Assembly (NCBI GenBank): GCA_034429215.1
Contig: DAOUGI010000022.1
Span: 7,132-31,131 of the forward strand
DNA length: 24,000 nt
Reading direction: 5' to 3'
Source: Anaerolineae bacterium
GTDB taxonomy: Bacteria; Chloroflexota; Anaerolineae; JAAYZQ01
Shown: one piece after another, positions 2 to 15,255 of the stretch
Numbering within the stretch: the stretch's first letter is position 1
Layout of the letters: each line of letters begins with the position of its first letter
The notes under the pieces: generated by a model
The model's database searches: none
Seen by the model: only the letters and a program-made list of their open reading frames with translations
What the model was told of the DNA's origin: nothing
Translations under genes and position numbers: made by a program

Positions 2-2404
2 GAGCGAGTGGATACCCTTGATGCATTTGAAGCCGTCATTGACCGGCAGTGGGAAGTCATCGTTGCCGACTATGCCATGCCGCACTTTGGCGGGCTGGCT
101 GCCCTGAAACGGGTGCAAGGCATGGGCCTTGATGTGCCGTTCATCATCGTTTCCGGCACAATTGGAGAAGACAGCGCCGTAGCGGCCATGAAGGCCGGAG
201 CCCACGACTATGTCATGAAAGATAATCTGGCGCGCCTGGTTCCTACCGTGCAGCGCGAGCTGCGCGAGGCACAGTCGCGGCAGGCGCGTCGACGTGCAGA
301 GGAGCGGCTGCGCGAAAGCGAGGCTCGCTACCGGCAATCCGTAGAGAACTCGCCCAACCCCATCTTTTCGGTGAATAGAGAAGACACCGTCCAGATGTGG
401 AATCAGGCCTGCGAGCAGGTCTTTCAATACAAGGCAGAAGAGATCATTGGCAGGGCTTATCATCAACTCCTGTGGGACACACAAGAGCAGGCTGCGGTTG
501 ATGGCCTACTGGCCCAGGTCTGGCAAGGGCTGTCGGTAAATGAGCAGGAGATGCAGTATCGGTGCAGGGATGGAACACAGCGGTTCATGGTCACGCGCAT
601 CTACCCTGTCTGCGATCTAGAGGGGCAGGTGGAAGGATGCGTGTTTGCCAATACCGACATCACCAAGCGCAAGCGAGCTGAACGGTTGCTCCAGGCACTG
701 AACGTAGCATCCCTGGCGATGCAGAAAGCCACAACACCGCAAGAGGTACTCACTACAGCAGGGGAAGGGTTCAAAGAGCTGGGTTTCTCTTGCGCGATTT
801 TCTTCACCGACGAGAGGCAAAGCAGGCTATTTCCCGAGTATCTCAGTTACAACCCAAAAGCGGTCAAGCTCGCAGAAAAGTTGCTCGGTGTCAATGCTGA
901 AACCTTTTCCCTAGCTGTCGAAACAGCAGATGTGTGGAAAGAGTCGACATGGAAGGGAAAAACCGTCTTTGTGGATGGCGCTGAGGGGTCGCGGCAGGTA
1001 CTGCCCAAGCCCTTGAAAAAGTTTGCCGGCCAGCTCGCTCAGGTCTTGGGGATCCCCAGATCGGTAATCGCCCCCCTCATCTTGGAGGACAAGGCCATCG
1101 GATTGCTCTCTGTCCAATCAGACGATCTCACCAAAGACGACATGCCGGCCATCACTGCCTTCGCCCACCAGATGTCAGCTGCCTGGCGCAAGGCCTGCTT
1201 AATGGACGACCTGGAAACGAGCCTGGAGGAGCTGAAACGCACGCAAGCCCAGCTCTTGCAGGCACAAAAGATGGAAGCGATCGGACGGCTGGCCGGCGGG
1301 GTCGCTCACGACTTTAACAACATGCTGACCATCGTCCATCTCAGCACGCGGCTACTGAAGCGGCAATTGCACCCGGAAGATCCATTGCTGGAATATGTGC
1401 AGCAGATCGAAGAAGCCGGAGACCGGGCTACCGCGCTAACCAAACAGTTGCTCAGCTTTAGCCGCCGGGATGTCATCGAGCCCCATGTTGTCGATCTCAA
1501 CCAAGAGATCGGCAGATTGAGCCGGATGCTGCAGCGTGTCATCGGTGAAGACGTCGATCTGGTGACCATGCTGTCCGAGGATTTGTGGCCCGTCTATCTG
1601 GATCCGGCCCAGATCGATCAGGCGATCGTGAACTTGGCCATTAACGCCCGCGACGCCATGCCCAACGGAGGCCGCCTGACAATCGAGACAACCAACACAA
1701 TGCTCGATGGGACATCCGCTGTCCGCCAGGTAGGCCTACAACCAGGAGATTATGTACAGCTCACTGTGACAGATACAGGGGTGGGTATGGGCGACGAAGT
1801 CAAAGCCCACCTTTTTGAGCCATTCTTTACAACCAAGGAACGGGGCCAAGGCACCGGCTTGGGCTTGTCCACTGTGTTTGGCGTCATTAAACAGAGTGGC
1901 GGACACATCTGGATTGACAGCGAAGTGGGGCAAGGCACGACCGTCCAGATCTACTTGCCCCGCACTGACAAGGTCGAGTCCCCAGATTCGCTGCGCGCAA
2001 CGCCCGCCAGCGCACTCCGTGGCAGTGAAACAATCCTGGTGGTGGAGGACTATACTGGCGTTCGAGATCTGGCTACCCAGATCCTGACAACGCACGGCTA
2101 CCAGGTGCTTGCCGCCAAAAACGGCCCCGAAGCCCTACGGATCAGCCTGAGGCACGACCGTCCCATCCACCTGCTATTGACGGACATGGTCATGCCCGGA
2201 ATGAACGGCAAGGAGTTGGCTGAGCAGATTCAAGCCCAGCGACCCGGCATTCGGATCCTGTATATGTCGGGATACGACAATCGCCTGGTTGAAGCCCCTA
2301 CGGTCCTAGGCGCGGGCGTGGCTTTCTTGGCCAAGCCGCTCACCGTGGAGACCCTGACCGAGAAGGTGCGAGCAGTGCTGGACAGGCCCAGTGAGATAAT
2401 CTGA
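2..2404 (+). CDS. Hybrid sensor histidine kinase/response regulator (REC-PAS-GAF-like-HisKA-HATPase_c-REC); 5' end cut by window edge
   Basis: The frame is open to the window start, and the first residues (EVIVADYAMPHFGG...FIIVSG...AGAHDYVMK) are the middle of a receiver domain, so the GTG at 8 is not the true start. A coiled-coil plus PAS region follows (NPIFSVN...WNQACEQVF...RCRDGT). H-box GGVAHDFNNML. HATPase_c N/G boxes (NLAINARDAMPNGG, DTGVGM, GQGTGLGLS). C-terminal receiver (ILVVEDY...LLLTDMVMPGMNG...LAKP). Stop TGA at 2402-2404. Confidence 0.9.
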   Translation, partial: ERVDTLDAFEAVIDRQWEVIVADYAMPHFGGLAALKRVQGMGLDVPFIIVSGTIGEDSAVAAMKAGAHDYVMKDNLARLVPTVQRELREAQSRQARRRAEERLRESEARYRQSVENSPNPIFSVNREDTVQMWNQACEQVFQYKAEEIIGRAYHQLLWDTQEQAAVDGLLAQVWQGLSVNEQEMQYRCRDGTQRFMVTRIYPVCDLEGQVEGCVFANTDITKRKRAERLLQALNVASLAMQKATTPQEVLTTAGEGFKELGFSCAIFFTDERQSRLFPEYLSYNPKAVKLAEKLLGVNAETFSLAVETADVWKESTWKGKTVFVDGAEGSRQVLPKPLKKFAGQLAQVLGIPRSVIAPLILEDKAIGLLSVQSDDLTKDDMPAITAFAHQMSAAWRKACLMDDLETSLEELKRTQAQLLQAQKMEAIGRLAGGVAHDFNNMLTIVHLSTRLLKRQLHPEDPLLEYVQQIEEAGDRATALTKQLLSFSRRDVIEPHVVDLNQEIGRLSRMLQRVIGEDVDLVTMLSEDLWPVYLDPAQIDQAIVNLAINARDAMPNGGRLTIETTNTMLDGTSAVRQVGLQPGDYVQLTVTDTGVGMGDEVKAHLFEPFFTTKERGQGTGLGLSTVFGVIKQSGGHIWIDSEVGQGTTVQIYLPRTDKVESPDSLRATPASALRGSETILVVEDYTGVRDLATQILTTHGYQVLAAKNGPEALRISLRHDRPIHLLLTDMVMPGMNGKELAEQIQAQRPGIRILYMSGYDNRLVEAPTVLGAGVAFLAKPLTVETLTEKVRAVLDRPSEII

Positions 2405-2420
2405 GGATCCGGACTACGAT

Positions 2421-3347
2421 TCATGCCAAGGCGTCTCGCAACGCCCCTTCAAGCTCGGGAAAATGGAACTGGAACCCCATGTCAAGAAGGTGGCGCGGCA
2501 CACCCCGCTGCCCGGTAAGCAACAGATCGGCCACTTCCCCAAACATTGCCTTCATCATCAAGCCCGGCACAGGCAGCCAGGCAGGCCTGCCCAGGACCCG
2601 CCCAAGGGCACGCGCGAATTGAGCATTGGTCACCGCCTGGGGTGCCACAAGGTTGAACAGCCCAGAGGCAGACTCGTTCTCGATCAGAAAACGGATCGCC
2701 CTGGCTTCATCCTTGAGGTGGATCCACGACATCCACTGCTTGCCGCTTCCGATAGGCCCGCCGGCGAACAGGCGAAACTGCAAGATCATCGGCCGCAGGG
2801 CGCCATGTGCCTTGTCGAGCACAACCCCGGTCCGCACAATGGCCCGCCGGACACCCATCGCCTCGACAGGCGCCGTGGAAGGCTCCCAGTCGTGCGCGGC
2901 AAAGCTGGCCAAAAAGTCTTGGCCTATCGGGCCATCCTCGGCAATTAGGTCATCGCCACGGGGGCCATACACCCCGACTCCCGATGCCTGTATCACAACG
3001 CGTGGCTTGCGGGTCACCTGCCTGACGGCGTCGACCACCGCCTGCCCCGCATTCAGCCGGCTTTCACGGATGATCCGTTTCCGCCCATCGGTCCATCGGC
3101 TGGGAAAAAGCCCTTCGCCCGAGATGTTCGCCCCGGCTAGGTTGACAATGGCGTCGGCGCCGTCGGCCAGCGCGGCCCACCCATCGCCGCTACGCCCGTT
3201 CCAGCGTTCAGCCCTCACCCCAGCAGGCAATCCTTTGACCTGCTCCGGTGCACGGCTCAAGACGATGACTTTATGGCCGTCCCTGGCTAGATCAGCAGAC
3301 AACGCTCCGCCGATGAGTCCGGTCCCCCCCGTGATAATGACGCGCAT
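2421..3347 (-). CDS. TIGR01777/YfcH-like atypical SDR (NAD-dependent epimerase/dehydratase fold with DUF1731-type C-terminus)
   Basis: N-terminal Rossmann motif MRVIITGGTGLIGGAL...GHKVIVLSR. C-terminal LLLTGQRGVPRHLLDMGFQFHFPELEGALRDAL is typical of the YfcH/DUF1731 tail. SD GGAGG lies 7 nt upstream of ATG 3347. Last gene of the heliorhodopsin operon. Confidence 0.8.
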   Translation of the reverse strand: MRVIITGGTGLIGGALSADLARDGHKVIVLSRAPEQVKGLPAGVRAERWNGRSGDGWAALADGADAIVNLAGANISGEGLFPSRWTDGRKRIIRESRLNAGQAVVDAVRQVTRKPRVVIQASGVGVYGPRGDDLIAEDGPIGQDFLASFAAHDWEPSTAPVEAMGVRRAIVRTGVVLDKAHGALRPMILQFRLFAGGPIGSGKQWMSWIHLKDEARAIRFLIENESASGLFNLVAPQAVTNAQFARALGRVLGRPAWLPVPGLMMKAMFGEVADLLLTGQRGVPRHLLDMGFQFHFPELEGALRDALA

Positions 3348-3394
3348 GTGATGACCTCCAGGTTCCTCTAGTCCAGGCTATCCACCTGGTCCGG

Positions 3395-4699
3395 CTATTG
3401 GCTGCCGGTGGCCTTTTGCAGCCAGGTGAGAATCAGGTCGCCGCGCCGGTCGAGCTCCCCCTCGGCAGCCACGCGGTAGGCGTGCAGGTAACGGGCCAGG
3501 GTGCCTTCCGGCACGCCCGCTCGGGCGAGCCTCTCCTCAGCATCAGCGATGTTGAAATCGAGAAAAATCACGTCCCCCAGGGCGAGCGCCGCCTCCAGGT
3601 GTGATGCAAACTCTTCGTTGGCGTGGGCCAGGTGCCACAAAGAAAGGCCGATCTCCCCGGCGGTCTGGCTCATCCTTGATTCAATCGATCCGCGCCGCTC
3701 GCGGAAATGCTCCAGGGCCGCGCGAGGCTCCACCGGGATCGGCTCGCCTTCTGGCGCACGGGGAGGGAATGGCATCAGCGAGTCCACCGCGTCGGCTGCC
3801 GTCGTCAGGCTTTCACCAAGGAAATGGCCGGAAATCCGGGACCGGATGGCCGGAAGCGAATGGAATATTCCTCCCCCATAGCCGATCGGCGTATGGTCCT
3901 GTAGTGCATGGGTCGTCTCGAGCAGGGTTGCCGCCGAGGGCAGCCGCATCGCGGTCAGGATTGACAGGCTTGGCCGGACGGCCGCGACGGTAGCTTCCAG
4001 TTGCTCCACCGGCACGTTCGCCCCGAGGTACACAACCGCCCATCCACGGCGGCGCAGCAGGAAGGTCAACAGCAACAGGCCAAAGACATGGTACTCCTGC
4101 GGTGGGCAGGCAGCTAGGATCTGGCCCGGCCGCGTGGCAGGGGAGGCAGCCATGAGCAACGACTCTAGTTGGCGGATGGCCAGCTCTGACACAAAGTGCT
4201 CCTGCTGCACTGTAGCAGCGCCCTGCTGCCAAAGAACGCCCACCTCTGCCAGGGCCCACCGCAGCAATTCAAGGCAGACGGTTTCTGGAGGGTAGAGCGC
4301 AAATGCCTGCGCCGCCGCCTGCTCAGCCCACTGCTCGTCATAGGCCAAGCAGGCCGCGAGCCATTCGTGCCGCAGCTCGTCCAGCGTGCCACCCACGAGC
4401 CCTAGCTTGACCACCGGAGTGGCTGGCAGCGCAAACGGCAGCGCATCGCTTCCGCCGGCCTCGATCCGGCGCCACAGGTCGACGGCCCGGCTGATGCTCA
4501 GTCCTTCTCGCAGGCGAGCCACCAGCCAGTTCAGCGCCTCAATGTCGTGCTGGGTGTAGAGGCGATGCCCGCCGCCGCTCCGGGTGGGAGACGGCACCCC
4601 ATAGCGACGCTCCCAAGCACGCAGAGCATCGGCCTTTAGGCCTGTCTGCTTCAGGACGGCCTTTAGGTTGAACAGGGGTCCTTCACTCTCAGCACTCAT
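3395..4699 (-). CDS. CarH/LitR-type light-responsive transcriptional regulator (MerR HTH + B12-binding module) with an extra C-terminal domain of about 130 aa
   Basis: MerR HTH: FNLKAVLKQTGLKADALRAWERRYGVPSPTRSGGGHRLYTQHDIEALNWL. Four-helix-bundle signature W-x9-EH (LWQQGAATVQQEHF). Lower-axial-ligand motif ExHxxG (PPQEYHVFGLLL), then SxL (SILT) and GGG of the Rossmann B12-binding fold. It continues about 130 aa beyond where CarH normally ends. AGGA lies upstream of ATG 4699, 13 nt after the DUF1295 stop. Confidence 0.8.
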   Translation of the reverse strand: MSAESEGPLFNLKAVLKQTGLKADALRAWERRYGVPSPTRSGGGHRLYTQHDIEALNWLVARLREGLSISRAVDLWRRIEAGGSDALPFALPATPVVKLGLVGGTLDELRHEWLAACLAYDEQWAEQAAAQAFALYPPETVCLELLRWALAEVGVLWQQGAATVQQEHFVSELAIRQLESLLMAASPATRPGQILAACPPQEYHVFGLLLLTFLLRRRGWAVVYLGANVPVEQLEATVAAVRPSLSILTAMRLPSAATLLETTHALQDHTPIGYGGGIFHSLPAIRSRISGHFLGESLTTAADAVDSLMPFPPRAPEGEPIPVEPRAALEHFRERRGSIESRMSQTAGEIGLSLWHLAHANEEFASHLEAALALGDVIFLDFNIADAEERLARAGVPEGTLARYLHAYRVAAEGELDRRGDLILTWLQKATGSQ

Positions 4700-4712
4700 T
4701 TTTCCTGCACAC

Positions 4713-5501
4713 TCAGCGCCGTTTCTTGGGGAACCAGGGCAAAAAAGCGCTTGTACTCTCGATATACTCGCGGTAGCCTGGCTTGGTCGTCGTCAAGGTT
4801 TTTTCCAACAAAGCCACTCCCGAAACCCGGAGCAGCATGAGCGTCATCAGGATTGGGCTCCAGATCGTCCAGAACCCACCCGCCGCCGCGGCGATGAGAT
4901 AATATCCCCACCACTGGGCCGCGTCGCCAAAGTAGTTTGGATGGCGGCTGTAGCGCCATACGCCGCTGTCCAGCACCTTTCCCTTGTTCGCCGGATTGGC
5001 CTTGAACCGGGTGAGCTGCAAATCTCCCACAGACTCAAAAAAGAACCCAATGGCCCACACCACAGCGCCCAGCAGGTCCACCACGGTCAGGCGGTCGGGT
5101 GTCGGGCTGATCTGAGCGGCCAGAAGCGGCGCCGAGATGATCCACAACAACACGCCCTGCAGCATAAAGACGCGAAAGAAGCTCTGCCACCACCAGCGGG
5201 TCCCGAACTCCTCTCGCCACTTGCGATAGCGAAAGTCTTCTCCCGCGCCCCAATTGCGGCGCAAAAGGTGAATCGACAGGCGCAGCCCCCAGATTGTGAC
5301 CAAAATGGCGATCAGCCACTTGCGCGCCGGGAACCCGTCGGGCGTCAGGGCAAAATAGAGCCAGTTGGCAATGACAAAACCGGTCCCCCAATAGGGATCG
5401 ACAATGCTCGAGTTGCGCAAAACCAGGCTGAGGCCCCACAACAGAGCCATGAGCCCCAACGTCACGCCCAGGCCGATGAGATACGCTTCCAGAAATGTCA
5501 T
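4713..5501 (-). CDS. DUF1295 family polytopic membrane protein (steroid 5-alpha-reductase / ICMT-like superfamily)
   Basis: Multi-TM hydrophobic profile. Hallmark C-terminal motif WRYSRHPNYFGDAAQWWGYYLIA. SD GGAGGT lies 6 nt upstream of ATG 5501. Confidence 0.8.
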   Translation of the reverse strand: MTFLEAYLIGLGVTLGLMALLWGLSLVLRNSSIVDPYWGTGFVIANWLYFALTPDGFPARKWLIAILVTIWGLRLSIHLLRRNWGAGEDFRYRKWREEFGTRWWWQSFFRVFMLQGVLLWIISAPLLAAQISPTPDRLTVVDLLGAVVWAIGFFFESVGDLQLTRFKANPANKGKVLDSGVWRYSRHPNYFGDAAQWWGYYLIAAAAGGFWTIWSPILMTLMLLRVSGVALLEKTLTTTKPGYREYIESTSAFLPWFPKKRR

Positions 5502-5521
5502 CTCTTTACCTCCATCAGGTG

Positions 5522-6364
5522 CTAGCTTTTCGCTTGTATGGCCACAAAACCCGCTGCCCTGGGGCCGATGTGGGTGCCGATAACCGGTGTCACTTCGGCA
5601 ACCATCGGCTCTTCGGCATCAGGAAACAGATGCAAGGCCTTCTGATGGAGAAACTCTGCCTTGTCAGGCGCATGGGTGTGAACCAGGGTCAGCTTTTCAA
5701 AAGGCGCCAATTGGGTTACAAGCTCCATCAGCCGGGCAGAAGCGCCATTCCGCGTGCGCACACGCTCCATCTCAAACTCGCCGCGGTGCATCTTGAGCAA
5801 GGGTTTGATCTGAAGCACAGATCCCAGGCTGGATTGGAAACGGCTCAGACGGCCGCTGCGCCGCAGAAATTCCAGGGTGTCCAGGGCGGCGATGCAATGG
5901 GTGCGGGACGCCTGGTCCTCAATGGCTGCCATAATATCGCTCATGGGCTGACCCTCGGCCGCCGCCTTGGCCGCGGTGACGGCCAACAGGCCGGTGCCCA
6001 GGGTTAACTGGCCCGAGTCGAATACGGTAACCGGCACCCTCTTTACCTCTTCTGCCGCCAGGCGCGCCACGGCCATCATGGCGCTCAGGCCGCTGCCGAT
6101 GTGGATCGAGAGGATCTCGGTAGCCCCGGCCTGCGCAAGGTTCTCATAAACCTGAACAAACTGCCCAGGGCCCGGAACTGAAGTGGTGGGGTGCGCTTCG
6201 AAATGGGGCAAGCCCTCGTAAAACTCCTCATGCGACATCTCGACGCCGTCCAGATAGCTCTTCTTGCCAATGTTGATGTACAAAGGCACGACGGTTATGC
6301 CATACTCGGCCACCATATCCTCGGGCAAATCACAATTACTGTCAGTTACGATCTTGATGCCCAT
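5522..6364 (-). CDS. DegV family fatty-acid-binding protein (FakB-like)
   Basis: Canonical DegV N-terminus IKIVTDSNCDLPEDMVAEYGITVVPLYINIGKKSYLDGVEMSHEEFYEGL. Length 280 aa is typical. SD GAGGGAG lies upstream of ATG 6364. Confidence 0.85.
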   Translation of the reverse strand: MGIKIVTDSNCDLPEDMVAEYGITVVPLYINIGKKSYLDGVEMSHEEFYEGLPHFEAHPTTSVPGPGQFVQVYENLAQAGATEILSIHIGSGLSAMMAVARLAAEEVKRVPVTVFDSGQLTLGTGLLAVTAAKAAAEGQPMSDIMAAIEDQASRTHCIAALDTLEFLRRSGRLSRFQSSLGSVLQIKPLLKMHRGEFEMERVRTRNGASARLMELVTQLAPFEKLTLVHTHAPDKAEFLHQKALHLFPDAEEPMVAEVTPVIGTHIGPRAAGFVAIQAKS

Positions 6365-6393
6365 TCCCTTACTCCCTCTTGACTAATAAGGAT

Positions 6394-6858
6394 CTACAAT
6401 CGGTAGTCGGCCGGGGTTCCCCAACGCTCTGTCTTGTGGTAACGACGGTTGGTCGATTGAAAATGGATCCAAATTGGCACCCGATCCAGCTCCGGCCTGG
6501 CCTCAAATAGGCCTCTGTCGCCCATACGAAGCGCCTCGATCGCCAGTGGAAGCTCGTGCCGGAAAATCCTGTCACGCATGCCAGCAGCGCCAAAAGCCAG
6601 CCCTCCGCTGACGTGGCAAAAGATGTGCAGCGCCGGTCCATCCTCGCCCTCCTGCCACTCAGCCAGCACCTCATCGCGCATCAAACGGGTGTACCAGCCC
6701 GAGATCTGTTCGCGATCCACTTCGGGCGCAATGGTCAAGAACAGCTCGCCCGTTGTGTCAGAGTGGGTTAGGGTGTAGCGCCTGGGGTTAAGCGGGCCAT
6801 CAGTTGTGGTACCCACCGCGAACTGGACGTGCAGCTTTTCCGGACTGAGACGACTCAT
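6394..6858 (-). CDS. Staygreen (SGR) family protein, bacterial homolog of chlorophyll Mg-dechelatase
   Basis: Colinear by eye with the plant SGR core. This ORF has PRRYTLTHSDTTGELFLTI, GWYTRLMRDEVLAEW, LHIFCHVSGG, IFRHELPLAIEAL, VPIWIHFQS and ERWGTP. Plant SGR has PRTYTLTHSDITSKLTLAI, GWYNRLQRDEVVAEW, LHVHCHISGG, IFCKELPVVLKAF and VWVYFHS. The THSD and RDE acidic/His motifs are intact. SD GGGAGAAG lies upstream of ATG 6858. Confidence 0.85.
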   Translation of the reverse strand: MSRLSPEKLHVQFAVGTTTDGPLNPRRYTLTHSDTTGELFLTIAPEVDREQISGWYTRLMRDEVLAEWQEGEDGPALHIFCHVSGGLAFGAAGMRDRIFRHELPLAIEALRMGDRGLFEARPELDRVPIWIHFQSTNRRYHKTERWGTPADYRL

Positions 6859-6869
6859 AGCTTCTCCCA

Positions 6870-6902
6870 GCCCCCACGCCGGGTGTCGTCCGGCGTGGGG
6901 GC
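6870..6902 (-). promoter_or_regulatory. Intercistronic GC-rich stem-loop between heliorhodopsin and SGR genes (13-bp perfect stem, 7-nt loop, no U-tract)
   Basis: 6870-6882 (GCCCCCACGCCGG) is the exact reverse complement of 6890-6902 (CCGGCGTGGGGGC). The loop is GTGTCGT. On the mRNA strand the stem ends 1 nt before the SGR SD (GGGAGAAG) and starts 25 nt after the heliorhodopsin stop. Confidence 0.7.
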
Positions 6903-6927
6903 GCTTGGTGATCGCAGCGATAGGGGC

Positions 6928-7752
6928 CTAGACGGGAGCCAGCGTCCCGGCAAAGATCATCCAGGCCAGTGCAGTCTTGGCCGCCAGGCTGAGGATGATG
7001 TACACCCGCTCGCCGAACAGGTAATCTTTCCAGCGGCCGACCTTCTTGTATTGCAGGAACATGTTCACGGCAAAGATATTAAAGAATACAAAGATCGTGG
7101 GGATGATGGCATACACAAAGGCGGGCGGCTTGGCATCCCCAGACGACAATGCGCTCAGGAAGTACATCACAATCACCACCCACGGAATAATCCCCGCGAT
7201 ACAGCCATAGATGAACGAGGTCCAGTCGGTCTTTTTCGTCGTCTGGTTGTGCAGCTCCATGATCATGCCAAACAGGTTCATCATGGCGTTAATGCCAAAC
7301 ATCACGATCATAGTGCCCAGGTCCCACACGCCGACCAGCATGCCGATCAACACGATCATCAGCGAAGAGCTGAGGGCATACTCGTAAAAGCGCGCCGGGT
7401 TCATGCCCACCTTGAGATGCTTTACGTACCACTTGTAGCCAAAGGTGGCCAGGGACAAGTGGGCTACTGCAGAGATCAACAGAAACAAGGCAACCGCCGG
7501 GCCGAATCGCAGGTCAAAGGCCAGCTTTGGATCCGGCACTAGGGCACGAGCGGCCATGTCGAACTTTAAAAAGTTGGTATAGATCGGATAGGTCGTGTCA
7601 TTGCTGAGCACGATCATCAGGATGCCCTGGATCAGGTGCAGGAACCCCATCACCAGGTTAAAGCGGCGCAGACCTTGGTAGGTCTTTTCGGGTACGTCCG
7701 GCGTCTTGGTCATGACAACAGATTTGGGCGCGGCTTTGGATTTCGCAGGCAT
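6928..7752 (-). CDS. Heliorhodopsin (retinal-binding 7-TM photoreceptor, inverted topology)
   Basis: Alignable by eye along its full length to heliorhodopsin 48C12. Conserved blocks: GFLHLIQ (TM1 His), ALFLLISAVAHLS (TM2 His), RFYEYALSSSLMIVLIG (counterion Glu), GCIAGIIPW, AFVYAIIPTIFVFFNIFA, QYKKVGRWKDYLFGERVYIILSLAAKTALAWMIFAGTL (Schiff-base Lys in SLAAK). Lys-rich N-terminus. I prefer ATG 7752 (SD AAGGAGA 8 nt upstream) over the TTG at 7812 given in the ORF track. Confidence 0.92.
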   Translation of the reverse strand: MPAKSKAAPKSVVMTKTPDVPEKTYQGLRRFNLVMGFLHLIQGILMIVLSNDTTYPIYTNFLKFDMAARALVPDPKLAFDLRFGPAVALFLLISAVAHLSLATFGYKWYVKHLKVGMNPARFYEYALSSSLMIVLIGMLVGVWDLGTMIVMFGINAMMNLFGMIMELHNQTTKKTDWTSFIYGCIAGIIPWVVIVMYFLSALSSGDAKPPAFVYAIIPTIFVFFNIFAVNMFLQYKKVGRWKDYLFGERVYIILSLAAKTALAWMIFAGTLAPV

Positions 7753-7830
7753 GATACTTTTCTCCTTGTCTTGTAGTTGGATTAGAATGTCCTTATGGTG
7801 CGGGCGCTGCAATTCCCACTACCGATAGAG

Positions 7831-7859
7831 ATTTTACCACAAGCCTGACGTTTTGTCAA
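7831..7859 (-). promoter_or_regulatory. Predicted sigma-70-type promoter of the heliorhodopsin operon
   Basis: Read on the minus strand: TTGACA (7859-7854), a 17-nt spacer, then TAAAAT (7836-7831) preceded directly by TGG (extended -10 TGn). It lies in the only AT-rich stretch of this region. The predicted leader to ATG 7752 is about 70 nt. Confidence 0.65.
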
Positions 7860-7874
7860 TATATTGTCGATATT
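7853..7874 (-). promoter_or_regulatory. Two tandem 11-bp direct repeats, candidate CarH-type operator overlapping the -35 box
   Basis: On the minus strand: AATATCGACAA (7874-7864) then TATATTGACAA (7863-7853). They match at 8 of 11 positions with exact 11-bp phasing. Both fit all five specified positions of nAnnTnnACAn. The flanking 11-mers (AACGCGTAAGA upstream, AACGTCAGGCT downstream) fit only 2 of 5 positions. Confidence 0.55.
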
Positions 7875-7939
7875 TCTTACGCGTTTCTAATAGGGGAGGT
7901 GGGCGCTATTATCTACCTGATGCCCGTGAGGCAATTGCA

Positions 7940-9952
7940 TTATCTCAATGACATGGTTGCGCCGCTCCTGTCCCCATGGTAGATGAATCCTAGCATGCGG
8001 CTGATCTTGGTCGGGTCAATACCTGCGTCGACCAGGGAGGCAGTCTGCCATTCGTCGTCGGTTTGCTCGGGGATCTTGTCATACGGGGCCAGCGTGGGTA
8101 CCGGCGTTCGGGCGGGTTGGGTGGCTGGTACTGTCACTGCTAGGCCTGTTGCAGGTACTGGTCCGAAAGCAGGCCTACACATGGGCGTGATCTTATCCAG
8201 CTCCCGCACCGCTGCATCCCAGGTGAACTCCTGGTTGTCGCTAAAGTAGTAATATGCGGTCCCGTTGGGCATGATGGCAACCACATTGCCGCTGATCCCA
8301 AGCATCTGCGGCACCCAGAACTCGCAGTCAAAGCCGTCGGCTTGGCTATAGCGGTTAGCCCAGAAGGCGTTATTGTACACCCGCCGGCTGTCTATCATTA
8401 CGCCACGGTCATCGGGTGATCGCTGTAGGGCGGCGGCAAGCAGGCCAGGGTGCAACACCTGGACGCCATCGATCTGCCCCTGCCAACTGTTCAGCAGGGT
8501 GGCAATCTTGGCGATGTCATCTGGAATCCACCACAAGCCATAGCCGCCCTCGGCCTGCCCCTGCCAGTCGTTGTCGGCGGTGCGCATGGTGGTGTATGCC
8601 CCTGGGCCGAGCCCGAGCGGCCGGTAGACCTCATCTACCACGAACTGGAAGATATCTGCCCCAGGACCTTCTTGGCTCTGCAGATAATTATGTAAGGCCC
8701 TGGTGAGGATGAATGTGTCACCGGTATGATACACCCAGTGCGTGCCCGGCTCAGCGGCCTGAGGCCAATCAAATGCCGCGGCGATCCGCGCGGCGTAGGG
8801 CTGGGCGCCAAAGAACTCGCCCATGTTAAAGCCGTCCTCGTCGGCCATGTAGCCCGCCGAGCCATAGTTCCCGGCAGACATGTCTATGGTGTGGTTGAAT
8901 GTCACCCGTTCCCAGTCCCCTGGGCTGGCGGCATATTCCGGGACATAGTCCTTGATCAGCAGGCCGGCCACCTCGGGCCCATATTTCTGCGCCAGGCGCA
9001 TCAGGGCCACGCTGACAAACGCCGATTTGGCAGTGGAGAAAGAGGCAGCGCGCATCGACTCGCAGTAGGGATAGATCCCAAAGCGGGTCTGGCAGCCGCC
9101 CAGGTAGTTGACCCCGTTCGCCACGACGCCATACCAGGTCATGTGCTCCGGACTAACGCCGCGCCCAAAGCCCGTGATGTCAACCCCGAGATAATCCTCG
9201 GCCAGCGCCTGGATCGGTTTGGTCGGCATGCGGGCGGCCAGCTCGGCCGCAAACTCGGTCCGGATGCGCTCGGCATCCTGAACAGGTCCTGGATAGTACG
9301 CAGCGTCCAGCAATCCCCACAGATCAGCCCGCGTGTAGGAAGTGACTTCTTGGGTAACCTGGTACCAGACCTTCGAGACGCTTCTTTCATCGAACAGGAA
9401 GGTCATCGTGCCATTAAAGCAGGAATTGCCGCCCTTGACCACCAGTGCAAAGGGCAAAGATGCCCGCGAGAAACCGCTATCGCCGGCCTCCTGCCACACC
9501 CGCCCCGGCTCAAGGATAATGTTCCACTCAGGATGGCCGGTGACGATCGATCCGCGCTGCACGGGGAGCAGATATCCATCGCTCTGCACGAATTCAAAAT
9601 CAAACTCTGGCAGGTAGGCGTATTCCGGCCCCAGCTCGCCCTGCAGCACCTGAATCTGGCCGCCTTCCCTCTCCCCGGCCAGCTCCAGGCGGCCTTCAAA
9701 GATGTGTGCCGCCGGAGCGGCGCCGGAAGGCGGGGCAAGTGCGCTCTCGTCCACCGGCGACGTGGCCTTGAATCCGTTCGCCAGCGCATCGTAGGTCAGC
9801 AGCGAGCGCTCCACCTCCCCGCTTCCGGCAAGAGCGGTGGTAGGCATCGTCGCGGCCGGCGTGGCGGTCGCCGCTGGGCTGACAGCATTTGGGGCAGAAG
9901 TACATGCAGCCAGGAGTATAAGGCCCACCAGAAGCAGCCGCGCAGCCTTCAT
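7940..9952 (-). CDS. Lipoprotein with beta-lactamase-fold serine hydrolase domain
   Basis: From ATG 9952 (SD GGAGG 5 nt upstream): MKAARLLLVGLILLAAC, a signal peptide with lipobox LAAC, followed by an Ala/Thr/Pro linker. Candidate SxxK nucleophile motif (FSTAKSAF) sits in a region of about 350 aa with beta-lactamase/esterase-like character. Pro/Thr-rich linker near the C-terminus. The ORF-track start at 10006 would overlap the upstream gene. Confidence 0.6.
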   Translation of the reverse strand: MKAARLLLVGLILLAACTSAPNAVSPAATATPAATMPTTALAGSGEVERSLLTYDALANGFKATSPVDESALAPPSGAAPAAHIFEGRLELAGEREGGQIQVLQGELGPEYAYLPEFDFEFVQSDGYLLPVQRGSIVTGHPEWNIILEPGRVWQEAGDSGFSRASLPFALVVKGGNSCFNGTMTFLFDERSVSKVWYQVTQEVTSYTRADLWGLLDAAYYPGPVQDAERIRTEFAAELAARMPTKPIQALAEDYLGVDITGFGRGVSPEHMTWYGVVANGVNYLGGCQTRFGIYPYCESMRAASFSTAKSAFVSVALMRLAQKYGPEVAGLLIKDYVPEYAASPGDWERVTFNHTIDMSAGNYGSAGYMADEDGFNMGEFFGAQPYAARIAAAFDWPQAAEPGTHWVYHTGDTFILTRALHNYLQSQEGPGADIFQFVVDEVYRPLGLGPGAYTTMRTADNDWQGQAEGGYGLWWIPDDIAKIATLLNSWQGQIDGVQVLHPGLLAAALQRSPDDRGVMIDSRRVYNNAFWANRYSQADGFDCEFWVPQMLGISGNVVAIMPNGTAYYYFSDNQEFTWDAAVRELDKITPMCRPAFGPVPATGLAVTVPATQPARTPVPTLAPYDKIPEQTDDEWQTASLVDAGIDPTKISRMLGFIYHGDRSGATMSLR

Positions 9953-9965
9953 CCGAACCTCCAGG

Positions 9966-10763
9966 TCAATGAGTCCCGTACTTCTCCAGCCGCCAAAACG
10001 TGTCAAACCACGGCGGAGCTATCTGGGTGAAATGCGACCAGGAGCCCGGCTCCGGGTTTTCGGCGCGCTCCATCCATTCCCACAAGCCCAAAAAACAAAA
10101 CCCATTGCCGACCAGCGTGTTCATCACAGTGCTCAGGGTATGGCGGAACTCATGCGGCCCGGACAGCCTGACCGACGAACCATCGGGCTGGGCGACGTCC
10201 CAATGCGGATAGTAGCGGGTCAGGTCTTCACCGTCGATGTAGGGACGGTTGAGGGCGTACGCCTCCCCGTCCCAGGCCTCATCGTCCACGGCGTGGCTAA
10301 AGGGGTTGGCAAACTGCAAGAAATAGATCCCGCCCGACTTGAGCACACGCGCCACTTCCCGGAAAACGGGCTCCACCGATGGGCAAAAGTTCAGAGAGTA
10401 GACCTGCCAGATCACGTCAAAGCGGCCAGCGGCAAAGATCGACAGATCGCGCATGTCGCCCTGGTGTGTCGCTACCTTCAACCCGTGGTGCGCGGCCGCC
10501 TGCCGGTCGCGCTCTAGCTGTACGTCGGACAGGTCCAAAACCGTCACGTCCGCTCCCAGCAGTCCGAAAGCGACCGAGTCCTGCCCGCCGCCGCTGGCCA
10601 GGCACAGCACGCGCTTGCCGGACACGTTGGTCAGGACGCCGTGCCGGCCTATCTGCCGGCGCGCCTCTTCGGGGGTATACTCCAGCCAGGGCTGCGACCA
10701 TTCGACATTGGCCTGCGCCAGGGCGTTCCATCGCTCGCGGTTAGTCCTGTTGATTTCGTCCAT
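9966..10763 (-). CDS. Class I SAM-dependent methyltransferase
   Basis: Motif I VLCLASGGGQDSVAFGLLGADVTVLDLS. Post-I/II elements (FDVIWQVYSLNF, VLKSGGIYFLQF). Confidence 0.8.
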   Translation of the reverse strand: MDEINRTNRERWNALAQANVEWSQPWLEYTPEEARRQIGRHGVLTNVSGKRVLCLASGGGQDSVAFGLLGADVTVLDLSDVQLERDRQAAAHHGLKVATHQGDMRDLSIFAAGRFDVIWQVYSLNFCPSVEPVFREVARVLKSGGIYFLQFANPFSHAVDDEAWDGEAYALNRPYIDGEDLTRYYPHWDVAQPDGSSVRLSGPHEFRHTLSTVMNTLVGNGFCFLGLWEWMERAENPEPGSWSHFTQIAPPWFDTFWRLEKYGTH

Positions 10764-10779
10764 GACTTATCCCCTGGTT

Positions 10780-11709
10780 TCAGAACTCTTTGAGCCACGT
10801 CTTGGAATCCTCTTTTGTTCCGAGCACGGACCCGTACAACGCGTCGGCGGGCGGATCATAGGCATTGGCCAACAGCCGGGTGCAGCCCATCAATTGCAGG
10901 CGCCTCATCCCTTCGGTCATGACGGCTTTGCCCAGCCCGCGCCGCCAGTGCTCCGCGGCCGTCCCCACCAGCACCGACACGGCGCTGCGGGTGTAATCGT
11001 CGTAAAAGATGGTGCAAAAGGCAGCGATGCTGCCGTCCGGGGCAGCGGCGACGATGTCCAGGTCGCGGCGGTAGAGCGGGGCAGACTGGACGTTTTGGTA
11101 CCACGACCAGTCGCCATCATAGGCCTCGTCCGGCTCGTCGGCGTGAAAAGCGCGCCACGAAGCCCAACTGCGGGCCGGGTGCTCGCTCAGGTCCCCCATC
11201 GAGCGGATGGTATACCCCGGTGCAAGCGGCGTTTCCGGCAGGGGGCACTCCAGATCCCGGTGCCAATGATGGACAACCCCGCTCTGCCTGGTGTACCCAC
11301 GCCGAGTCAGTATCTCCTGGCGTTGGGCATCGTCGGCAAAGGCGGGGACATACACGATCCGTTCCCCAGTCTGATTCCGGCCAAACAGGTGCTCCTCGGC
11401 ATGGGCGAGCATCTCGTCCTCCAGATCTGCCGTACGGAAATGGGGATGCACGTGCAGGCACACCTCACTCCAGCCGACCGGATGCAGCACTGCTGCTATC
11501 TGATCCCCAGCCGTCTCCCACAGGGTGGCCGCCTTCTCCACCGGGTCACACACCTGAAGGTTCAGGACAAAATGCCAGCGCAAGTAGTCGAGGCGCGCGA
11601 CGTGCCAGCTATGCTCGCGGCGTCCGTTGAGCGCAAACACTTCCCGCAGGAAATTGCGAATCCGCCAATAATCGTCTTCAGTTTGGGCCTGTTGCATAGT
11701 TAGCTTCAC
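10780..11709 (-). CDS. Two-domain GNAT family N-acetyltransferase (paralog of 14303-15247)
   Basis: C-terminal GNAT motif A: VGTAAEHWRRGLGKAVMTEGMRRLQLMGC. Roughly half of the residues are identical by eye to the 14303-15247 product, including EDDYWRIRNFLREV, GYTIRS, QSAPLYRRDLDIVA and DGSIAAFCTI. The start is GTG 11709 (or ATG 11697), 3 nt after the APH-like stop. Confidence 0.8.
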   Translation of the reverse strand: MKLTMQQAQTEDDYWRIRNFLREVFALNGRREHSWHVARLDYLRWHFVLNLQVCDPVEKAATLWETAGDQIAAVLHPVGWSEVCLHVHPHFRTADLEDEMLAHAEEHLFGRNQTGERIVYVPAFADDAQRQEILTRRGYTRQSGVVHHWHRDLECPLPETPLAPGYTIRSMGDLSEHPARSWASWRAFHADEPDEAYDGDWSWYQNVQSAPLYRRDLDIVAAAPDGSIAAFCTIFYDDYTRSAVSVLVGTAAEHWRRGLGKAVMTEGMRRLQLMGCTRLLANAYDPPADALYGSVLGTKEDSKTWLKEF

Positions 11710-11712
11710 AGC

Positions 11713-12774
11713 TCACCGCCTCTCAAGGTATCGCAGCAATTTGGTTCCGTCCCGGTTCCGCCACTCCTCGTGTTCGGCCCGCCTGGCCGGGTCGTTCTTG
11801 ATAAACAGGGATGCCCACAGGACCATGGTGGCATATTGCGTGGCCATGAACAGGTCGAGGTGCCGGAGCTGCGATTCGGGCAGCGTGCGGACCTGGGCAT
11901 AGCCCTCCAGAAAGGCATCCCGCATCCAGTACCATTCCTCGGTCCAGGGCCACAGGCACAGGGCGATGGCAATGTCCCACAGCCAGTAGCCAAAACCGCA
12001 GTCCTCAAAGTCGATCGGATACGCCTCGTCGCCCTTAAACAGCACATTCTCCGGATACATGTCGGCGTGGATCAGGCCATAGGCATCCGGCCCCTTGCCC
12101 AGGCCCTCCATCACCTGCCGCGCCTCTTGCGACACGATCTCGAACGGCTTTCTCAAGCGCTCCGGCATCGAGGCCACCAGCTCTTCGACACCGCCGTCGA
12201 AATACCGCCCGCCCAGTTGGCCCTCCCAGTCCCACACAGGCCGCTCAAACCCATCAGGAGGCTGCCAGCCCGCCGCGAACTGGTGCAGCCGGGCCACCAT
12301 CCGCCCCCAGGCCCGGAAATGGCTGGGGCGAAACCCTTTGGTCAACCTTCGCCCGTCGATCCAGCGCATCAGCGATACAATCCGCCCCTGTGGCGTCCCC
12401 GGAGTGGTGAAGCTCGTCACCAGCTCACCCTCCAGATTGGGCACCGGCTCTGGCACAGGCAGACCTGCCTCGCGGCTCAGCGCCGCCAGCCAGGTCATCT
12501 CTCCCTTGGTGCCCTCCAGGTGATCTGTATAGAGAACCCGCAGCAGATAGCGGTTGGGCACGTAGGGTCCTGGCCCCTCCCCCCTGACCGCAAGGGAAGC
12601 CGGGACGTCAACCCGGTAGATGATGTTGGCCGAGTATTGGACGAACTCGAGCCGGGCTCCACTCAAGCCATAGGCATCGAGCGCAGCCTCGGCCAGTCGC
12701 CTGGTCTGGCGCAGTTGGCCCAGGCGTGTCAGATCACCATAGGGCTTCACAATCCTTCGTCTCCTGGTGAGCAT
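11713..12774 (-). CDS. Phosphotransferase-family kinase (APH / CotS / homoserine-kinase-II-like fold)
   Basis: Brenner catalytic motif GLIHADMYPENVLF and Mg-binding PIDFEDCGFG. The start is ambiguous. ATG 12774 follows a GGGGGA run. GTG 12750 would form a GTGA 4-nt overlap with the upstream stop. The ORF-track start at 12816 is less likely. Confidence 0.75.
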   Translation of the reverse strand: MLTRRRRIVKPYGDLTRLGQLRQTRRLAEAALDAYGLSGARLEFVQYSANIIYRVDVPASLAVRGEGPGPYVPNRYLLRVLYTDHLEGTKGEMTWLAALSREAGLPVPEPVPNLEGELVTSFTTPGTPQGRIVSLMRWIDGRRLTKGFRPSHFRAWGRMVARLHQFAAGWQPPDGFERPVWDWEGQLGGRYFDGGVEELVASMPERLRKPFEIVSQEARQVMEGLGKGPDAYGLIHADMYPENVLFKGDEAYPIDFEDCGFGYWLWDIAIALCLWPWTEEWYWMRDAFLEGYAQVRTLPESQLRHLDLFMATQYATMVLWASLFIKNDPARRAEHEEWRNRDGTKLLRYLERR

Positions 12775-13829
12775 TCCCCCGCCAGATTCAACGGCAGGGT
12801 AATGGTGAACCTGCACTCGTCGTTGCCCCTCAGCAAGGTCTCGGCCTGTTCAAACCTGACCGGCTGCTCTAAAATCCCCTCCCACAGCCGCCGGTACCAG
12901 CCCGCTCCACAGAAACAAAAGGTCGGCGACAGCTTGGCAGGGATTTCGTCAAGATAAGGGTGGACAAATGGGCAATGGCAGTAGGCCTTGCGCCGTTCAG
13001 CCGGGGTCGCTGCCTTCTCAAAGCCCTCGGGGTCAAAGGGGTTCTTGCGCATGTGGACAACGTTGCCCTTGCGCACCGGCTTTTCATACCAAAAGCTGTC
13101 GGCGTACATCTCGTGCAGGACGTCGTCGATCTCGCCGCGCCGGTGATAGATGGCGCGCAGGTGATCGATCCGCTCCTGCGGAAAGACGTGAGCGCAGTGC
13201 GACACGGCCTGGCACTTCTTTTCGGCGTCGTCGCTCAGCGCATCCAGCCGCTCGATGGCGCCCTGGATCCAGGCGGTGTAATCGTCAAAGGAGGATGCAG
13301 GCGTGATCGCTTCGATCCCCTGCATGACCCGCTCTCGGGCCTCCATCCCAAGGACCGTTTCGGTACCCTCGGCCAGCAGCCGATCCCACTCGTGCAGGAT
13401 CACCTGCACCTCGGTGACATCCTCCTCCGGATGGGCGGCATCCAGCGCCCGGTAGATCTCCCGCCTGAACAGGGACGTCGTCCCGGCGTGCTTGTCCAGG
13501 TAGGCGTAGATCCTGAGCACGCTTTCCCGGATCGACCGGTGCGCGCCGTGGTGGAGCGTGATCAGCGCCGGGGCAGCTTCCAGCGTGCGGGTGCGAACCT
13601 CGCCGGTTTCCACCGCGCGCACCACCGGGAAAGCAGCTTCGACCAGAAAGCCGTCCTTCACCGCCCCGCCGTGAAAGATAACCATGGCATCGCCGCGGAT
13701 GGCCTCGCCGCAGGCCGCCCGCAGCCGGTCAAGCAGCGGCGGGATCTCGTCGCGGGTGTCGATGCGGGCTGTGAGGCTGGCGATCTGAACCGGATCGAGT
13801 TTTCTGTAAATGATAGGTTCGTCAGTCAT
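12747..13829 (-). CDS. Fusion protein: N-terminal GyrI-like/effector-binding-type domain plus C-terminal Cys/His-rich domain of unknown function
   Basis: The N-terminal ~150 aa (IASLTARID...IPPLLDRL...FHGG...FLVEAAFPV...LEAAPALITLHHGAH...IYAYLDKHAG) follows the pattern of GyrI-like small-molecule-binding domains. The C-terminal part carries CQAVSHCAH, YCHCPFVHP, FCFCGAGWYRRLWE and ECRF. No HTH is present. Confidence 0.5.
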   Translation of the reverse strand: MTDEPIIYRKLDPVQIASLTARIDTRDEIPPLLDRLRAACGEAIRGDAMVIFHGGAVKDGFLVEAAFPVVRAVETGEVRTRTLEAAPALITLHHGAHRSIRESVLRIYAYLDKHAGTTSLFRREIYRALDAAHPEEDVTEVQVILHEWDRLLAEGTETVLGMEARERVMQGIEAITPASSFDDYTAWIQGAIERLDALSDDAEKKCQAVSHCAHVFPQERIDHLRAIYHRRGEIDDVLHEMYADSFWYEKPVRKGNVVHMRKNPFDPEGFEKAATPAERRKAYCHCPFVHPYLDEIPAKLSPTFCFCGAGWYRRLWEGILEQPVRFEQAETLLRGNDECRFTITLPLNLAGECSPGDEGL

Positions 13830-13865
13830 CTCTGTTTCCTCCAGGTTGGACAGACGCCCATGGGA

Positions 13866-14291: not shown

Positions 14292-14302
14292 CTTGCGTCC
14301 TT

Positions 14303-15247: not shown

Positions 15248-15255
15248 AATTTATG

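Follow-up and report, generated by a model that had tools for sequence, protein, structure and literature searches.

We analyzed a 24-kb window (the whole stretch of DNA given above) from an Anaerolineae bacterium, focusing on a run of six genes on its minus strand that begins with a heliorhodopsin (HeR) gene and includes a gene of the staygreen (SGR) family and a gene for a B12-binding regulator. An earlier interpretation based on the letters of the window and their open reading frames (the sequence-only reading) had proposed that these genes form a light-response operon with two different photoreceptors. The genes and the features that accompany them are, in the direction of transcription:

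7849-7892, minus strand: predicted operator, four tandem 11-bp units TATTAGAAACG / CGTAAGAAATA / TCGACAATATA / TTGACAAAACG
7831-7859, minus strand: sigma-70-type promoter, with -35 TTGACA at 7859-7854, a 17-nt spacer and extended -10 TGgTAAAAT at 7839-7831
6928-7752, minus strand: heliorhodopsin, 274 aa, ATG at 7752, Shine-Dalgarno sequence AAGGAG
6870-6902, minus strand: GC-rich hairpin in the HeR-staygreen spacer, 13-bp stem, 7-nt loop, no U tract
6394-6858, minus strand: staygreen-family protein, 154 aa
5522-6364, minus strand: DegV-family fatty-acid-binding protein, 280 aa
4713-5501, minus strand: DUF1295 membrane protein, 262 aa
3395-4699, minus strand: MerR/B12 regulator, 434 aa
3407-3733, minus strand: phycobiliprotein-like globin ("photoglobin") domain of the regulator, residues 323-431, five helices
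2421-3347, minus strand: TIGR01777 (YfcH-type) extended short-chain dehydrogenase/reductase (SDR) with a DUF1731 C-terminus, 308 aa

The open-reading-frame list of the window confirms the six coordinates and the spacers of 69, 29, 20, 13 and 47 nt (from HeR to SDR) on which the operon proposal had been built, and the proposed family assignments hold for all six proteins, whose Pfam and NCBIfam scores exceed the curated cut-offs. A Shine-Dalgarno sequence had been claimed for each gene: it is clear for five of the six (AAGGAG, GGGAG, GAGGGAG, GGAGG and GGAGG) and weak for the regulator (AGGA). A longer alternative reading frame of HeR starts with TTG at 7812, ∼12 nt past the predicted transcription start. 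The run is bounded upstream by a gene for a lipoprotein with a beta-lactamase domain on the same strand (7940-10006) and downstream by a convergent gene for a hybrid histidine kinase (8-2404). An Rfam scan of 2000-8200 at E≤1 returned a single sub-threshold chance match to a snoRNA family and no riboswitch or leader RNA.

Operator and promoter

The operon was said to have one strong promoter, and a single sigma-70-like site is indeed present in 2200-8100, where it is the sole promoter-like sequence and matches 11 of 12 consensus positions. Two of the four units overlapping and preceding its -35 element, TCGACAATATA and TTGACAAAACG, fit the CarH consensus nnnnTnnACAn, and the -35 element lies inside TTGACAAAACG; in other words, ATATCGACAATATATTGACA (7873-7854) consists of two tandem CarH repeats with the -35 within the second. 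Both the consensus and the design that places the -35 inside a repeat are known from footprinted operators (PMC9304148). Two perfect tandem repeats occur at one site in the 24-kb window, compared with 0.02 expected, and the operator is also the sole match in the window to a three-repeat search with ≤3 mismatches. The operator has the same register in the related loci L004, L013, L083, L163 and L164, and operator, -35, -10 and Shine-Dalgarno sequence can be aligned across the window, L164, L163 and L083.

To look for this arrangement elsewhere, we used two collections of related loci. A staygreen alignment scan found relatives in 503 species genomes, of which the best 80 loci were analyzed (1.13 Mb), and metagenomes, searched with an alignment of HeR, contributed 80 HeR loci with 67-89% identity (0.57 Mb). 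The pattern T..ACA-N5-TTGACA was found at 13 sites in the staygreen loci, compared with ∼1.5 in shuffles, and at 11 sites in the HeR loci, compared with 0.6 in shuffles; together, 24 sites were found in 1.7 Mb where ∼2 were expected. Nearly all are intergenic and have an extended -10 (TGnTAnnnT) at the correct distance. Positions left free in the search are likewise conserved, namely an ACAA, the C preceding TTGACA and the A after it. The genes behind the sites encode HeR, staygreen, MFS, DegV, DUF1295, MerR-B12, AhpC, CrtD-like, SDR-DUF2867 or photolyase proteins. Site-bearing operons include MFS-HeR-SGR-DUF1295-DUF1722 (L013), DegV-HeR-MerR/B12-DUF1475-SGR-DUF1722 (L018), MerR/B12-SGR-hydrolases (L053), MerR/B12-CrtD-like-photolyase-AhpC (L066) and SDR-DUF2867-MFS-HeR-SGR (L086), and HeR stands alone behind the site in L090, L099, L107 and L116. 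In L014 the repeats and promoter immediately precede staygreen alone, which is a predicted direct target there.

The sites are associated with the regulator gene: they occur in 6 of the 11 staygreen loci that carry a MerR-B12 gene in the same locus and in 3 of the 69 that do not (Fisher p 1e-4). We interpret the recurrent sites as an in-silico regulon of the MerR/B12 protein, of which HeR and staygreen are both predicted members.

The MerR/B12-globin regulator

Pfam identifies the domains MerR_1 (PF13411, 1.6e-11), B12-binding_2 and B12-binding in the regulator, and its full set of modules comprises a MerR winged helix-turn-helix (∼10-80), a disordered linker (83-103), a four-helix bundle, a Rossmann B12 domain and a C-terminal globin. 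It is similar to Thermus thermophilus CarH (TtCarH) with E 1e-27, residues 9-74 aligning with the TtCarH DNA-binding domain. The photochemistry signatures of CarH that had been read from the sequence are retained: the Wx9EH motif (W157, E167, H168) and the lower-ligand H204, whose TtCarH counterparts we take to be W131, E141, H142 and H177, are invariant in 30 homologues.

The regulator is, however, not a plain CarH. It is 434 aa long compared with ∼290 aa for CarH, with ∼130 extra C-terminal residues, and among its homologues (>3,500 at E≤1e-10) the best 120 are 427-467 aa long, save two of 350 and 383 aa without a MerR domain. We built a full-length AlphaFold2 model from a 30-sequence alignment (pLDDT 87.3), in which the five helices of the C-terminal domain are modeled with confidence. 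The best Foldseek matches in the PDB are the photocobilins 8J2X and 8J2W (Saccharothrix) and 8J2Y (Acidimicrobiaceae), with target-normalized TM-scores of 0.80-0.83 over ∼340 columns, while TtCarH falls behind with 0.55-0.67. Because a score above 0.8 on a 330-residue target is hardly attainable otherwise, the globin must presumably superpose as well. The globin domain itself has no Pfam match, and the C-terminal 150 residues, searched as a single sequence and as an 11-sequence profile, gave no sequence match in the PDB. When these 150 residues were modeled alone (pLDDT 81.7), all 50 best PDB folds were allophycocyanin, phycocyanin or phycoerythrin, although the matches are modest (E 0.015-0.06, TM-score ∼0.5). 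D376, which is D in 23 and N in 6 of 30 homologues, lies 32 residues before Y408, which all 30 share, and D83 and Y115 of phycocyanin have the same spacing; this resemblance to a phycocyanin bilin pocket concerns spacing only and is no more than suggestive. The "distal" position is Ala, so a covalent bilin link is not expected.

Taken together, the model identifies the regulator as a three-module variant of the photocobilin type. This architecture, MerR helix-turn-helix plus B12 domain plus photoglobin, was predicted in the description of photoglobins (PMC8717448). The claim of two photoreceptors is therefore an understatement, since the regulator has an additional phycobiliprotein-like globin.

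It is instructive to compare the regulator with its two closest known systems. CarH and class I LitR proteins (Thermus thermophilus, Myxococcus xanthus, Bacillus megaterium) share with it the MerR winged helix-turn-helix, the Wx9EH bundle and the Rossmann His, a tandem 11-bp nnnnTnnACAn operator that includes the -35, a regulator gene inside the regulated cluster, and photolyase and carotenoid-type desaturase genes in the wider regulon. In contrast, they have two modules and ∼280-300 aa and no globin; their cargo is crt genes rather than HeR, staygreen, DegV, DUF1295 and SDR; and the operator of the window consists of two full and two degenerate repeats. Photocobilins (SasPcob, 8J2W/8J2X; AbPcob, 8J2Y; PMC10979010, PMC8717448), whose chromophores are B12 and biliverdin, resemble the regulator in having a B12 domain followed by a five-helix phycobiliprotein-like globin, and the regulator likewise has no Cys for covalent bilin attachment. 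They differ in that the members characterized so far occur by themselves or as fusions with a diguanylate cyclase and have enzymes as their targets; a member that binds DNA has not been described, nor has an operator or a regulon. Moreover, no similarity between the globin of the window and the solved globins was detectable from sequence.

Gene order and the heliorhodopsin-staygreen linkage

The sequence-only reading would have been contradicted by a gene order that is not conserved in any relative. The order HeR-SGR-DegV-DUF1295-MerR/B12-SDR is the same in L164 and L165, the contigs of two staygreen homologues with 81-82% identity, and L163 has HeR-SGR-DegV-DUF1295-MerR/B12-photolyase-ABC, with the SDR missing. 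The orthologous proteins are 91, 82, 83, 94, 74 and 78% identical to those of the window. The flanks differ: L164 and L165 have AhpC-photolyase-ABC downstream and, divergent upstream, DUF2177-STAS-?-FAD-oxidoreductase, and none of the L164 flanking genes that we sought (DUF2177, STAS, AhpC, photolyase, ABC) is present in the window. Because the order is kept in L163-L165 while the flanks change, the genes of the run can be treated as a single unit. The nearest species-representative genome, L079, has the same genes in fragmented form, probably owing to a frameshifted long-read assembly, and was excluded from the inference of order.

In L164 (6502-6903, minus strand) and L163 (6512-6913, minus strand), the gene divergent from HeR encodes DUF2177, which is another family that Chazan et al. 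(bioRxiv 10.1101/2021.02.16.431466) associated with HeR; STAS and FAD oxidoreductase genes follow. The DUF2177/HeR intergenic region of both loci contains a conserved GTATAACACAGGTG block, which may be the DUF2177 promoter. These genes are missing from the window.

Among the 80 staygreen loci from species genomes, HeR lies ≤10 kb from staygreen in 18 and directly upstream of it, on the same strand with a gap ≤170 nt, in 11. The latter include a Hodarchaeota locus (L070) whose HeR and staygreen are 47% and 56% identical to those of the window. If each genome had a single HeR at a random position, chance would produce ∼0.45 such cases, given genomes of ≥2.5 Mb and stretches of 14 kb (Poisson tail 6e-23, a significance inflated by phylogenetic non-independence). 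At least seven arrangements of the two genes are seen, Asgard and Bathyarchaeia archaea included: HeR-SGR; SGR-HeR (L006); HeR-MerR-DUF1475-SGR (L018); SGR-MFS-HeR (Heimdallarchaeota, L077); SGR-MsrB-DUF1722-HeR (Bathyarchaeota, L072); HeR-ABC...AhpC...SGR (Dehalococcoidales, L073); and, in the actinomycete L080, the two genes 8 kb apart. In a neighbor-joining tree of staygreen, which has low resolution with its 154 residues, adjacency to HeR appears at ≥6 places. The varied arrangements and scattered tree positions argue against simple inherited synteny. Two metagenome-assembled genomes of Chloroflexota (L004/L005 and L042/L049) each carry two staygreen paralogues at separate loci, neither adjoining HeR.

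These numbers bear on the suggestion that illuminated HeR binds or modulates staygreen, DegV, DUF1295 or SDR post-translationally, the operon co-producing a sensor and its effector. The adjacency at separate places in the tree, down to a HeR of 47% identity, speaks for such a partnership. HeR has been reported to bind and modulate three kinds of protein, namely glutamine synthetase, a photolyase and an ABC transporter; published cases include regulation of an operon neighbor (PMC9529153, PMC11109279), and Chazan et al. considered the association with DegV and DUF1295 to be HeR-specific (bioRxiv 10.1101/2021.02.16.431466). However, staygreen stands next to HeR in only 4 of the 60 evaluable close HeR loci (and anywhere in the locus in 6 of 80), 56 of the 80 staygreen loci, all with enough flank, have no HeR, and in other lineages one to three unrelated regulon genes separate the two. 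Control by a common operator would suffice to explain the clustering of HeR and staygreen, no physical contact being needed. We therefore regard a direct partnership as unlikely.

Since staygreen follows HeR in so few of the close HeR loci, the pair is not obligate; on this comparative evidence, HeR and staygreen are recurrent companions in one regulon pool.

Cargo proteins and companion genes

HeR matches PF18761 with 340.6 bits (cut-off 26.7; E 5.8e-102) and NF038020 with 373 bits (cut-off 100), and it aligns with TaHeR (6IS6) with E 4.7e-79, K259 and E124 coinciding with the SLVAK and FEY motifs. Of the key residues that had been claimed for it, the Schiff-base K259 in transmembrane helix 7 and the counter-ion E124 in helix 3 are present and invariant among ten HeRs.

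The staygreen protein (PF12638, 166 bits, E 6.2e-49) aligns without gaps over 154 residues with AbSGR-h (PDB 7Y5Y; E 4.5e-55), and retains R26, Y28, T29, T31, H32, D34, T36, D62 and D114. Mutating these residues reduced or abolished the activity of AbSGR-h, D34 and D62 being required for catalysis (PMC8531759), and Mg-dechelatase activity is proven for this homologue only (PMC8531759, PMC11006732). The window protein thus keeps all of the activity and solubility residues of AbSGR-h, which also comes from the same class of host, the non-phototrophic Anaerolineae. The two cases differ in that AbSGR-h was studied as an enzyme model for plant SGR, and the available parts of the reports give no gene context, regulation or bacterial role.

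DegV (PF02645, 260 bits, E 4.2e-77) scores 273 bits with TIGR00762 (cut-off 99.7) and 144 bits with the FakB1 equivalog, under its 350-bit cut-off, and no gene for a Dak2/FakA partner kinase was seen in the window. The DUF1295 protein (PF06966, 253 bits, E 2.3e-75), with weaker Steroid_dh and PEMT matches, is assigned by these similarities to the steroid-5-alpha-reductase/ICMT/PEMT-like superfamily. The SDR scores 306.8 bits with TIGR01777 (cut-off 207) and 270 bits with ThyD, below the 400-bit cut-off.

For a census of companions, all open reading frames around staygreen were clustered de novo and then annotated with Pfam. Counting per 80 staygreen loci, the most frequent companion is a Tet(A)-like MFS protein (18), usually encoded directly upstream on the same strand, followed by HeR (17 by this clustering), photolyase, DUF1475 and AhpC/TSA (15 each), MerR/B12, UvdE and DegV (11 each), DUF1722/YbgA (10), and DUF1295 and SDR-DUF2867 (9 each). 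Two families of alpha/beta-hydrolases are found in 9 and 6 loci, YfcH-SDR in 8, DUF4345 in 7, PNPOx, PlsY and tocopherol-cyclase-like proteins in 6 each, and Rieske, CrtD-like and MsrA/MsrB proteins in 5 each. The independently gathered HeR loci share the same companion families. The pool is a light, UV and photo-oxidative-stress repertoire, and the proposal that the operon serves photo-oxidative damage control fits these neighborhoods, with their photolyase, UvdE, AhpC/TSA, MsrA/B, PNPOx and tocopherol-cyclase-like genes.

DUF1295 genes had also been expected in proteobacterial singlet-oxygen regulons. The support for this expectation comes from an alga, Chlamydomonas, where the genes that respond to singlet oxygen through SAK1 encode, among others, DUF1295, DUF2177, DUF1365, MsrA, SOUL and Rieske proteins as well as CFA synthases (PMC4067076). 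Genes of these types overlap the HeR and staygreen neighborhoods, whereas the regulator is another one, the host is a eukaryote, and no HeR, staygreen or B12 photoreceptor is involved. By analogy, this response supports a lipid-protection role of DUF1295-type genes that is independent of HeR.

Two Asgard islands, L077 7910-17859 (Heimdallarchaeota) and L070 9116-18505 (Hodarchaeota), are compact and same-stranded and draw on the same gene pool as Chloroflexota: DUF1295, tocopherol-cyclase-like, staygreen, MFS, HeR, a gene of unknown type, UvdE and photolyase. No MerR/B12 gene was seen within these two stretches.

A pair of genes for a Rieske oxygenase and a tocopherol-cyclase-like protein recurs in 5-6 loci (for example L028 2293-4288). 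One or two alpha/beta-hydrolase genes often follow staygreen (L041, L053, L084, L089, L094), and a gene for a Tet(A)-like MFS exporter often precedes it. The series staygreen-hydrolase-Rieske echoes the plant order SGR-PPH-PAO. A chlorophyll pathway of the PPH/PAO type finds no support in family scores: the NCBIfam matches of the alpha/beta-hydrolases, the Rieske and tocopherol-cyclase-like proteins and the recurrent neighbors C30 and C38 are generic or far below cut-off.

The operon might instead serve the supply of chromophores or ligands, DegV, SDR and DUF1295 handling retinoids for HeR, or staygreen, hydrolase and Rieske proteins together degrading chlorophyll to a linear tetrapyrrole with which the globin is loaded. 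The bilin-type globin of the regulator, the hydrophobic ligands bound by DegV, the hydrolase genes after staygreen and the Rieske genes in five loci all point this way. However, hydrolase and Rieske genes are both missing from the window, as are blh, crt and heme-oxygenase genes; the sequence-only reading, which had raised the retinoid version, had itself noted the absence of blh. For the Rieske protein, the best score is methylsterol-monooxygenase-like and not PAO, and the hydrolase matches are generic. Singlet oxygen induces DUF1295 and DUF2177 in an alga outside any HeR context, and the same lipid-type genes lie near staygreens that have no HeR. Retinoid handling gains no support, and we consider a supply function of either kind very unlikely.

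Evidence for and against a single operon

The six genes lie on one strand with 13-69-nt gaps behind a single promoter, in an order kept in L163-L165; this picture is qualified by the hairpin without a U tract in the HeR-staygreen spacer. The absence of an internal U-tract terminator had been claimed, and a scan for such terminators gave 10 matches, all within coding sequence and not meaningful, with none in the spacers; the 13-bp GC hairpin had gone unmentioned. The energy is -41 kcal/mol for the 86-nt spacer stretch (z -2.9), and the hairpin comes after the HeR stop and is followed immediately by the Shine-Dalgarno sequence of staygreen. Unrelated but equally strong hairpins occupy the HeR-staygreen spacer of L003, L013, L052, L086, L089 and L094, and spacers <55 nt have none. 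The hairpin is possibly a partial terminator, or a stabilizer of the 3' end that would set the ratio of HeR to downstream products.

Several observations weigh against a light-derepressed operon. The hairpin could end part of the transcripts. The promoter count of 1 is not above chance, shuffles giving 1.6; the weight of the promoter rests on its quality, position and conservation, not on the count. The operator comprises only two full repeats and two pseudo-repeats, and a full operator is not universal among orthologous promoters, since the close HeR-staygreen locus L003 (4470-4665) keeps the -35 and the extended -10 while its first full TnnACA repeat is gone. The regulator scores 135 bits with the NCBIfam CarH equivalog NF052513, whose cut-off is 400 bits. 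None of the photoglobin loci had been experimentally studied according to PMC8717448, and photocobilin in the light state undergoes no large domain rearrangement of the CarH type (PMC10979010), so the release mechanism here may differ. Finally, dechelation yields pheophytin, which is a photosensitizer too, and "detoxification" by staygreen only would therefore be chemically incomplete.

Some of these points could be taken to mean that the genes are merely adjacent, the light transcript ending at the hairpin after HeR and the five genes behind it being expressed independently, or that the signal of the MerR/B12 protein is B12 or redox state instead of light, as some B12-binding regulators, such as AerR (a weak match here), are not simple photoreceptor repressors. 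Yet the hairpin has no U tract and is followed at once by the staygreen Shine-Dalgarno sequence, the 69-nt spacer contains no promoter-like site, and the gaps of 13-47 nt elsewhere are too short for promoters. The order is conserved while the flanks vary, the Wx9EH motif is invariant, and in L013, L018, L086 and L094 multi-gene runs with staygreen among their members have operator-promoters upstream. Mere adjacency, or a regulator blind to light, is accordingly very improbable indeed.

Other genes in the window

A gene for a DnaE-type DNA polymerase III alpha subunit (1102 aa) lies at 19002-22310 on the plus strand. Its region has a GC content of 0.69-0.71, compared with ∼0.62 elsewhere in the window, and it is possibly a DnaE2-like, horizontally acquired copy. 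The long minus-strand run at 9966-18437, which is unconnected to the light operon, encodes a methyltransferase, 4-5 GNAT acetyltransferases, an APH-family kinase, an OYE flavin reductase and two products of open reading frames without a Pfam match.

Discussion

The evidence presented above makes it likely that the six genes form one operon that is derepressed by light under the control of its own B12 photoreceptor. Because a CarH-type operator overlaps the -35 of the sole strong promoter and the repressor gene sits within the operon, the operon is very probably self-regulated and light-induced, judging by analogy with CarH; here our analysis and the sequence-only reading arrive at the same place. 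Following the CarH paradigm, in the dark an oligomer of the MerR-family protein loaded with adenosylcobalamin would occupy the four 11-bp repeats that cover the -35, and in the light its Co-C bond would be broken and the repressor released from the DNA. HeR, staygreen, DegV, DUF1295, further repressor and SDR would then be produced, and the response would be self-limiting because the repressor gene is inside the operon. The globin of the regulator may bind a linear tetrapyrrole, extending or tuning the wavelengths sensed.

The cargo would be a local assortment drawn from a mosaic regulon for protection against light and UV, present in Anaerolineae, Dehalococcoidia and several archaeal phyla. 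Judging from its family and context and from the proven activity of a close homologue, the staygreen protein would remove Mg from photosensitizers of the chlorophyll type. DegV, DUF1295 and SDR may repair or remodel photo-oxidized membrane lipid, as their families and the singlet-oxygen regulons suggest, and HeR would serve as a light sensor or modulator, with a target that could be encoded elsewhere. A bolder picture can be drawn, in which the staygreens of non-phototrophs are light-regulon enzymes directed against foreign Mg-tetrapyrroles, and HeR and the B12/bilin regulator form a multi-color sensing layer. Illuminated HeR would directly gate staygreen or the lipid enzymes, or else dechelation followed by the steps of the neighboring hydrolase and Rieske proteins would yield a linear tetrapyrrole for the globin, and a sensing loop would thereby be closed. 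We consider this extended scheme quite unlikely.

Much of the neighborhood was known before. Published neighbors of HeR include DegV, DUF2177, DUF1295, AhpC, photolyase, PNPOx, tocopherol cyclase, MFS/ABC and cobalamin-binding proteins, and a hypothesis of lipid remodeling and oxidative stress was proposed for them earlier (bioRxiv 10.1101/2021.02.16.431466); the HeR operon groups of Cho et al. contain MerR, SDR, alpha/beta-hydrolase, DUF2177 and photolyase (PMC11109279). The links of HeR to DegV, DUF1295, MerR/cobalamin and SDR are thus not new. The families in these published neighborhoods are the same as ours, especially in Chloroflexi, and DUF2177 is divergent from HeR in L163 and L164; the difference is that the main texts do not name staygreen and propose neither an operator nor a common regulator. 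In the accessible part of the supplement of Chazan et al., PF12638/Staygreen has 0 matches, which is not conclusive.

In the searchable literature, which leaves most subscription journals outside, we found no relevant paper that treats heliorhodopsin jointly with staygreen or SGR, nor any operator or regulon ascribed to a MerR protein with a photoglobin. Within that scope, the impression that the HeR-SGR linkage had not been described stands, and the linkage is recurrent. What appears to be new here, as far as that literature goes, is the staygreen link and the operator; most other HeR associations were already known. With this operon, a MerR-photocobilin has its first candidate DNA target; the architecture was predicted earlier and never linked to an operator, and it might provide an optogenetic transcriptional switch responding to green plus red light.

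The finding has consequences for two protein families whose natural roles are unknown. HeR stands behind a recognizable CarH-type operator here and in at least eight related loci, which predicts that HeR is light-induced under a B12 photoreceptor. Staygreen repeatedly has genes for HeR, photolyase, UvdE, Msr and AhpC as neighbors and stands behind the same operator, which points to a role in light stress and not to a "promiscuous" leftover. This bears on why non-photosynthetic bacteria and archaea retain a highly active chlorophyll Mg-dechelatase, and it would tie both HeR and prokaryotic staygreen to the light-stress response.

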